Shown here one piece after another: positions 20,662 through 35,908 of a stretch of 64,000 nucleotides of DNA. The translations under genes were made by a program, and so were the position numbers. The notes under the pieces are model-generated. The model saw only the letters and a program-made list of their open reading frames with translations. It had not been told where the DNA came from and searched no databases. The stretch is from Escherichia coli (GTDB lineage Bacteria; Pseudomonadota; Gammaproteobacteria; Enterobacterales; Enterobacteriaceae). The DNA lies in assembly GCF_044647545.1 (NCBI RefSeq), contig NZ_CP172818.1. The stretch is one strand, 5' to 3'. Numbering within the stretch: the stretch's first letter is position 1; each line of letters begins with the position of its first letter.

Positions 20662-20882
20662 GCAAACAAACCCTGGACAAACAGGTGATAACACCCTGCT
20701 TAGCGGCTTTTCAGGCCCGGCAGGGGAAAAGTGCGGAGGTAGTCAGATAAGTAAAATCTACACGCGCGAATAAGTAGACCACAGCAAAGGGAAAAAGTGT
20801 GGGGAAAGAGTGTGCATGAAGCACAAATTTACAAAAATGCAAGTTTGAAAAGAGACTTTAGCGTTACAAAAAGCAGTAAAAA

Positions 20883-35599: not shown

Positions 35600-35908
35600 T
35601 TAACGCATGGAAAGATGCAAAAAATGGCCATCTGCGTCAAAAGAACAGACAAACTGCTCTTTACGGAAGGTATAACCGCGCATTTCGTAGCTCCCCTGAA
35701 ACTGTTCAAATGCGGTGACGTCGATTTTTTGCGCACCTGTATTATAGCGTTTTGCCGCCTGATCTTTGCATAGCCCTTCCATATTCAACGAACGCAGAGG
35801 ATCAACCTTTACCCGTTGTGCTTTCTGCACGGGTGGCGGTGTAGAACAACCCACTAGCGCCATAAGCACCATAAGCGCCATTGCCGGAAAGAAAGCGTTC
35901 ATCATCAT
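35600..35908 (-). CDS. ysaB: Uncharacterized lipoprotein YsaB
   Basis: About 100-aa ORF with signal peptide and lipobox LVGC; start ambiguous among three consecutive ATG codons. Confidence 0.6.
   Translation of the reverse strand: MMMNAFFPAMALMVLMALVGCSTPPPVQKAQRVKVDPLRSLNMEGLCKDQAAKRYNTGAQKIDVTAFEQFQGSYEMRGYTFRKEQFVCSFDADGHFLHLSMR

Follow-up and report, generated by a model that had tools for sequence, protein, structure and literature searches.

A three-unit 9-bp repeat allele in the signal-peptide region of Escherichia coli ysaB, probably a derived slippage polymorphism

The systems closest to the short repeat considered here are slipped-strand mispairing indels at imperfect direct repeats, phase-variable contingency loci and the signal peptides of lipoproteins cleaved by signal peptidase II (SPase II). 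The repeat lies in ysaB, within a 64-kb stretch of E. coli DNA that we refer to as the window. It resembles slipped-strand mispairing indels in its 9-bp period, in its adjacent copies and in a copy number of two in some strains and three in others; the indel coincides with the repeat register, and the one site has seen a gain as well as an apparent loss. Unlike a hypermutable variable-number tandem repeat (VNTR), the array is very short and stable, with one allele unchanged in 829 genomes. As in contingency loci, the repeat sits towards the 5' end of a gene whose product is surface-associated, and its copy number varies between strains, but its unit is a multiple of three, the frame is never broken, both alleles are full-length, and the two states are inherited by whole lineages, with no switching within lineages. 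Neither the frame shift nor the altered promoter spacing that marks such loci is found, as the unit is in frame and no promoter-like site overlaps it. The encoded signal peptide has the hydrophobic core followed by L-V-G-C of SPase II substrates, with the position of the cysteine kept across genera, although in E. coli it begins MMMN, with neither Lys nor Arg, and so departs both from typical lipoprotein signal peptides and from the MMMK or MTMK of Citrobacter and Salmonella. The three-unit form is an ordinary in-frame polymorphism, probably due to slippage, that involves no new mechanism. It is already catalogued, being present and annotated in hundreds of public genomes, and its importance is very little; what it offers is a neat illustration, on a small scale, of how an imperfect repeat can give rise to an in-frame duplication within a signal peptide, the new copy of which then decays and is now and then lost again.

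The gene and its start are placed as follows.

35600..35908, minus strand: ysaB coding sequence, 102 codons plus stop, a YsaB family lipoprotein (assigned by Pfam, DNA identity and synteny)
35900..35908, minus strand: three consecutive ATG codons (MMM), the first being the RefSeq start in both the 99-aa and the 102-aa alleles

The product belongs to Pfam family PF13983 (YsaB), which it matches with an E-value of 9.2e-43 and 144.9 bits (cutoff 27) over residues 28-102 and profile positions 1-75 of 75; an NCBIfam scan of the same product matched no family model. At the DNA level the gene is 100% identical to the annotated ysaB of FDAARGOS_497 (NZ_CP033850.1) and ST648 (NZ_CP008697.1), where the product is annotated as RefSeq WP_000980106.1, and the gene order yiaA-wecH-ysaB-glyQ-glyS is the same as in K-12 and other E. 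coli, which puts the gene in the orthologous position. The list of open reading frames (35908..35600) agrees with the 102 aa from the first ATG given in an earlier note on this DNA, and the length of about 99 aa named there for YsaB is indeed that of K-12, whose gene has two units. The MMM start is kept in Escherichia, Citrobacter, Kluyvera and Leclercia, and Salmonella has MTM. The gene is described as encoding a predicted protein of unknown function (PMC3668246). The glyQS promoter sits in the 97-bp gap downstream of ysaB (PMC10123097), far from the repeat. In strain 22AR0118 (L007, 1583-1766), ysaB is cut short after about 54 codons by an IS66-family element and carries a pseudogene annotation, so at least one clinical isolate can do without the gene. 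In CUVET19-1426 (L006, 1-199), an IS2 transposase gene is found upstream of ysaB in the usual place of wecH.

The window allele has three repeat units.

35873..35881, minus strand: repeat unit 1, ATGGCGCTT, Met10-Ala11-Leu12, present in all E. coli alleles
35864..35872, minus strand: repeat unit 2, ATGGTGCTT, Met13-Val14-Leu15
35855..35863, minus strand: repeat unit 3, ATGGCGCTA, Met16-Ala17-Leu18, with its Leu codon at lipobox position -3

Direct reading of the minus strand from 35881 to 35855 gives ATGGCGCTT-ATGGTGCTT-ATGGCGCTA, which codes for MAL-MVL-MAL within ysaB, as the earlier note had it. The array that the note placed at 35860-35890 is thus real, with a true span of 35855-35881 that differs from that placement by a few bases. 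The ATG triplet is real as well, although the array does not follow it directly, as had been described, and begins 18 nt past the third ATG. The CTA codon of unit 3 doubles as the Leu of the lipobox L-V-G-C (35857-35846). Units 1 and 2 differ at position 5, as do units 2 and 3, and a perfect adjacent 9-mer copy is absent from every register of the window allele. Tandem Repeats Finder (TRF) reports the array at 35856-35881 with period 9, 2.9 copies, 88% matches and a score of 45, which is below the default threshold of 50; it is one of two arrays in the 64-kb window with a TRF score of at least 40. The other is a 13-bp unit, GGGAAAAAGTGTG, at 20789-20814 (2.0 copies, score 45). Just one locus in the window reaches a period-9 self-match of 15/18 or more, compared with a mean of 0.025 per first-order Markov shuffle. 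Stronger evidence than TRF or the shuffles that the array is not due to chance is that genomes differ in copy number at precisely this repeat. The array has the head-to-tail copies of one unit, the copy number varying among related genomes and the confinement of the indel to the repeat that mark a slippage VNTR. It is not hypervariable, having two states only and one apparent revertant.

The two-unit allele of K-12 reads ATGGCGCTT-ATGGTGCTA-GTG and encodes 99 aa. Aligning the window with K-12 at the DNA level places the gap at 35859-35867, inside the array, and the region of the ATG triplet is identical.

35856..35867, minus strand: interval with the 9 bp that the two-unit allele lacks, in four equivalent registers

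The registers are GCTTATGGC, CTTATGGCG, TTATGGCGC and TATGGCGCT, and removal of any one of them restores the K-12 sequence exactly. The earlier note had offered either a slippage-type gain of one 9-bp unit or a difference in start-codon annotation. Three consecutive in-frame ATGs do exist, and the difference between 102 and 99 aa could in principle be a choice among them and nothing more; we regard this as next to impossible, given that the first ATG is used for both RefSeq coding sequences (309 and 300 nt) and that a true 9-bp gap lies in the repeat. Because the RefSeq start is the same ATG in both forms, the 3-aa difference is a real 9-bp indel, and the annotation explanation is rejected. 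Across genera the N-terminus MMM(N/K)xFFPA persists despite synonymous changes in its codons. The 99-aa and 102-aa lengths of YsaB represent real allelic variation, not inconsistent annotation. The gain of a unit by slippage, on the other hand, gains support from the two-unit length found in about 85% of complete E. coli genomes and in the outgroups; an identical repeat count in reference genomes, which the note had named as evidence against it, is not what we found, as K-12 has two units and the window three. Nor is there much to recommend the extra unit as a sequencing or assembly artefact of the window: some platforms miscall short tandem repeats, but 829 complete genomes, each assembled independently, share the identical allele, E. 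coli 536 (NC_008253.1) among them, so that we give this explanation practically no credence.

These counts come from a census of 5,426 complete E. coli genomes. The three-unit junction was found in 829 of them (approximately 15%), on several flanking haplotypes, with the same number recovered independently in a second search, and the two-unit pattern in about 4,550. Genomes with two units include K-12 MG1655, DH5alpha, O157:H7, the ST131 strain JJ1887, REL606 and BL21(RP); those with three include strain ST648, IMT16316, ECONIH1, 536 and F11. ST648 belongs to phylogroup F, and 536 and F11 to phylogroup B2. The three-unit allele is therefore not specific to one strain but an old allele common to 829 complete genomes, and the indel, being present in ST648, 536 and F11 and not in K-12, O157:H7 or ST131, could serve as a minor lineage marker. 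A synthetic four-unit query gave no single-piece match among the complete genomes, and a synthetic one-unit query gave no excess; the search tool joins BLAST pieces, which makes these imperfect tests, informative through their ranking and the recurrence of the count 829 alone. The 61-bp two-unit query did not reach far enough in the 3' direction to tell the alleles apart.

The consequence for the protein depends on where the indel falls in the signal peptide. From established knowledge of SPase II substrates, a lipobox is a [LVI][ASTVI][GAS]C motif at the end of a hydrophobic segment, and the window allele has such a motif, L18-V19-G20-C21, after AFFPAMALMVLMA.

35846..35857, minus strand: lipobox Leu18-Val19-Gly20-Cys21 (CTA GTG GGT TGT), unchanged between the alleles

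Cys21 is the predicted lipid-modified first residue of mature YsaB. The indel is confined to the hydrophobic core: the stretch ahead of the lipobox changes from AFFPAMALMV in the two-unit form to the longer sequence above, the core lengthens from about 10 residues to 13, and the number of residues before the cysteine rises from 17 to 20. Because the indel alters neither LVGC nor Ser+2 nor any other part of mature YsaB, the same product is expected after cleavage by signal peptidase II. Both lengths are within the normal range for lipoproteins, E. coli Lpp having 20 residues before its cysteine, and under the +2 rule a Ser at +2 would allow Lol-dependent sorting to the outer membrane. Mean Kyte-Doolittle hydropathy goes from 1.82 to 1.93, the predicted folding of the 5' mRNA differs between the alleles by less than 3 kcal/mol, and promoter-like, terminator-like and Rfam scans around the repeat found no element overlapping it. 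Neither E. coli allele has a positively charged n-region, with no Lys or Arg in residues 1-20, which is atypical of the signal peptides of lipoproteins. Codon 4 (35897-35899, AAC) gives MMMN in E. coli, compared with Lys4 in Citrobacter, Salmonella and E. albertii. The effect of the third unit is presumably small or nil and the change nearly neutral; the small consequence that the earlier note expected would fit the unchanged lipobox and mature protein.

The direction of the change was examined in a scan of species-representative genomes, which contained 62 ysaB loci; 20 of these were inspected from the annotated start. The lipobox cysteine is at residue 18 in E. albertii, E. whittamii, Escherichia sp. 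MOD1-EC7003 and SCPM-O-B-8794, and likewise in Citrobacter species and Salmonella arizonae/diarizonae (for example, MMMNSFFPAMALMVLVGC in Escherichia and MTMKYFFPVMIAIALVGC in Salmonella). The cysteine itself is kept in all inspected YsaB orthologues but one, that of Enterobacter mori, which reads ...AGR. Because all of the outgroups examined, a cryptic-clade Escherichia among them, have Cys18, we conclude that the three-unit form, with Cys21, is a derived gain within E. coli. Codon 13 provides a further marker. Most E. coli have ATG (Met13) at this position, and the ST131-type strains JJ1887 and M16807 have ATT (Ile13), like E. albertii and E. whittamii. Because ATT is shared with these two species, the two-unit allele of ST131 is ancestral and not the result of a re-deletion. 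With ATG at codon 13 the two 9-mers resemble each other more closely, and it was on this version that the duplication arose.

Our main reading, to which we assign a probability of about 0.85, is that the three-unit allele is a derived minority allele which arose by a slippage duplication followed by a substitution, and that it is old, in frame and without effect on the mature protein. In the ancestral sequence, ATGGCGCTT-ATGGTGCTA (MAL-MVL), the adjacent 9-mers would already have matched at 7/9 positions. Replication slippage or unequal pairing would then have duplicated the 9-bp register GCTTATGGT, giving MAL-MVL-MVL, and a later T>C transition in the new third unit (Val>Ala) would have produced ATGGCGCTT-ATGGTGCTT-ATGGCGCTA. 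The allele may subsequently have spread over flanking haplotypes by recombination or been kept as an old polymorphism, with occasional reversion through deletion of the same 9 bp. Pairs of 9-mers matching at 7/9 or better are not rare, occurring at 163 positions in the window; therefore, the duplication would have exploited a chance microhomology in a signal-peptide sequence rich in Met, Ala, Leu and Val. At least one substitution must have followed the duplication, because no register holds a perfect adjacent copy. The intermediate MAL-MVL-MVL, searched for with a synthetic query, was absent from the 5,426 complete genomes, the best matches being window-type alleles at 98.6%; because of this absence, the order of duplication and substitution is deduced, and slippage as the mechanism of the gain is likewise something we infer. 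The internal core, GCTTATGGTGCTTATGGCGCTAGTG, is identical in 14/14 three-unit alleles inspected, and because all 14 share this two-step internal sequence we favor a single origin. That argument draws on the sequence identity and on the unlikelihood of the same two-step allele arising twice.

The most serious competitor reverses the polarity: the three-unit form would be older in E. coli, and the widespread two-unit form of K-12, O157 and others would derive from a 9-bp deletion. On sequence alone this is one step shorter, as taking GCTTATGGC out of the window allele yields precisely the sequence of K-12, and a comparable deletion is apparent in strain NY1601. Phylogroups B2 and F branch early in E. 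coli, and 536, F11 and ST648, which belong to these groups, all have three units. Against this, every outgroup, including the closest Escherichia, has the two-unit length with Cys18; ysaB of MOD1-EC7003 reads ATGGCGCTT-ATGGTGTTA, which is the K-12 arrangement; and ST131 keeps the ATT of E. albertii and E. whittamii. We therefore consider an older three-unit form unlikely, and as the main explanation a loss in K-12 is ruled out by the two-unit outgroups. A mixed history, in which an early gain was followed by many secondary losses, keeps a small residual probability for some two-unit lineages.

A gain within E. coli could also have been favored by selection, if the longer signal peptide altered the targeting route or processing of YsaB, perhaps offsetting its uncharged n-region. 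The allele is stable and frequent, with one apparent revertant among approximately 550 window-like haplotypes; the region ahead of the core of E. coli YsaB contains neither Lys nor Arg, where Citrobacter, Salmonella and E. albertii have Lys4; and the hydropathy does go up slightly. However, both lengths are normal for lipoprotein signal peptides, and two-unit alleles with the same uncharged n-region predominate, so that a functional, selected variant seems to us very improbable. More speculative still is the idea that the extension is a selected tuning of YsaB export or processing in extraintestinal lineages (ST648; 536/F11), with the repeat acting as a slow, reversible length switch. We return, then, to the reading of an old, derived slippage allele, and to its history in the population.

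A local tree of 870 columns around ysaB unites the three-unit alleles in one clade. With 2.8 kb of flanking sequence (2,826 columns) they are not monophyletic (bootstrap 0/200), and SCU-171 and FDAARGOS_1253 group with ST131. A table of variable sites shows that the locus is mosaic: the three-unit alleles of Ecol_545, SCU-171 and FDAARGOS_1253 (and, by identity, those of 536 and BH100) are in an otherwise ancestral ysaB sequence, and the group of the window, ST648 and YDC107 combines three units with a tight cluster of changes deeper in the gene. The three-unit allele is thus old, and either recombination has carried it between backgrounds or it is a long-standing polymorphism that has persisted.

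The cluster of the window/ST648/YDC107 haplotype consists of eight substitutions in 43 bp at 35733-35775 on the minus strand (codons 45-59), of which six are synonymous and the others are Ala45Gly and Glu59Ala. In the rest of E. coli and in the Escherichia outgroups this stretch has a single conserved version. A donor was sought among the 62 outgroup loci, 17 of which were compared, and none was a better match than ordinary E. coli (58/66). The cluster looks like a short tract imported from an unsampled source, or like a clustered mutation event.

One genome carries this cluster together with two units. NY1601 (NZ_CM135959.1, 1583-1882) has the window-type SNP cluster, the exact two-unit sequence and a 99-aa product, WP_072648203.1. 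It is 99.8% identical to the window haplotype minus 9 bp, and it is the sole complete genome to reach at least 99%. NY1601 is best read as a probable secondary loss of one unit, an apparent reversion through deletion of the same 9 bp, with some probability of an assembly error. The accession number of its protein is much lower than a protein new in this recent assembly should have, which suggests that the same protein had been recorded before.

Several records appear under names that do not fit their sequence. The locus of SCPM-O-B-8794 (NZ_JAATUR010000010.1), which is labelled E. coli, departs from the window sequence at 165 of the 2,826 columns and clusters with E. whittamii, away from E. 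coli; it probably represents a non-coli Escherichia lineage under an E. coli label. Enterobacterial ysaB was also found on a contig labelled 'Chryseobacterium sp. 18061' (CACSKA010000004.1) and on one from an 'uncultured Collinsella sp.' metagenome-assembled genome (CABTAA010000217.1), the latter 100% identical to the query over residues 64-102. Both are most likely mislabelled or contaminated assemblies.
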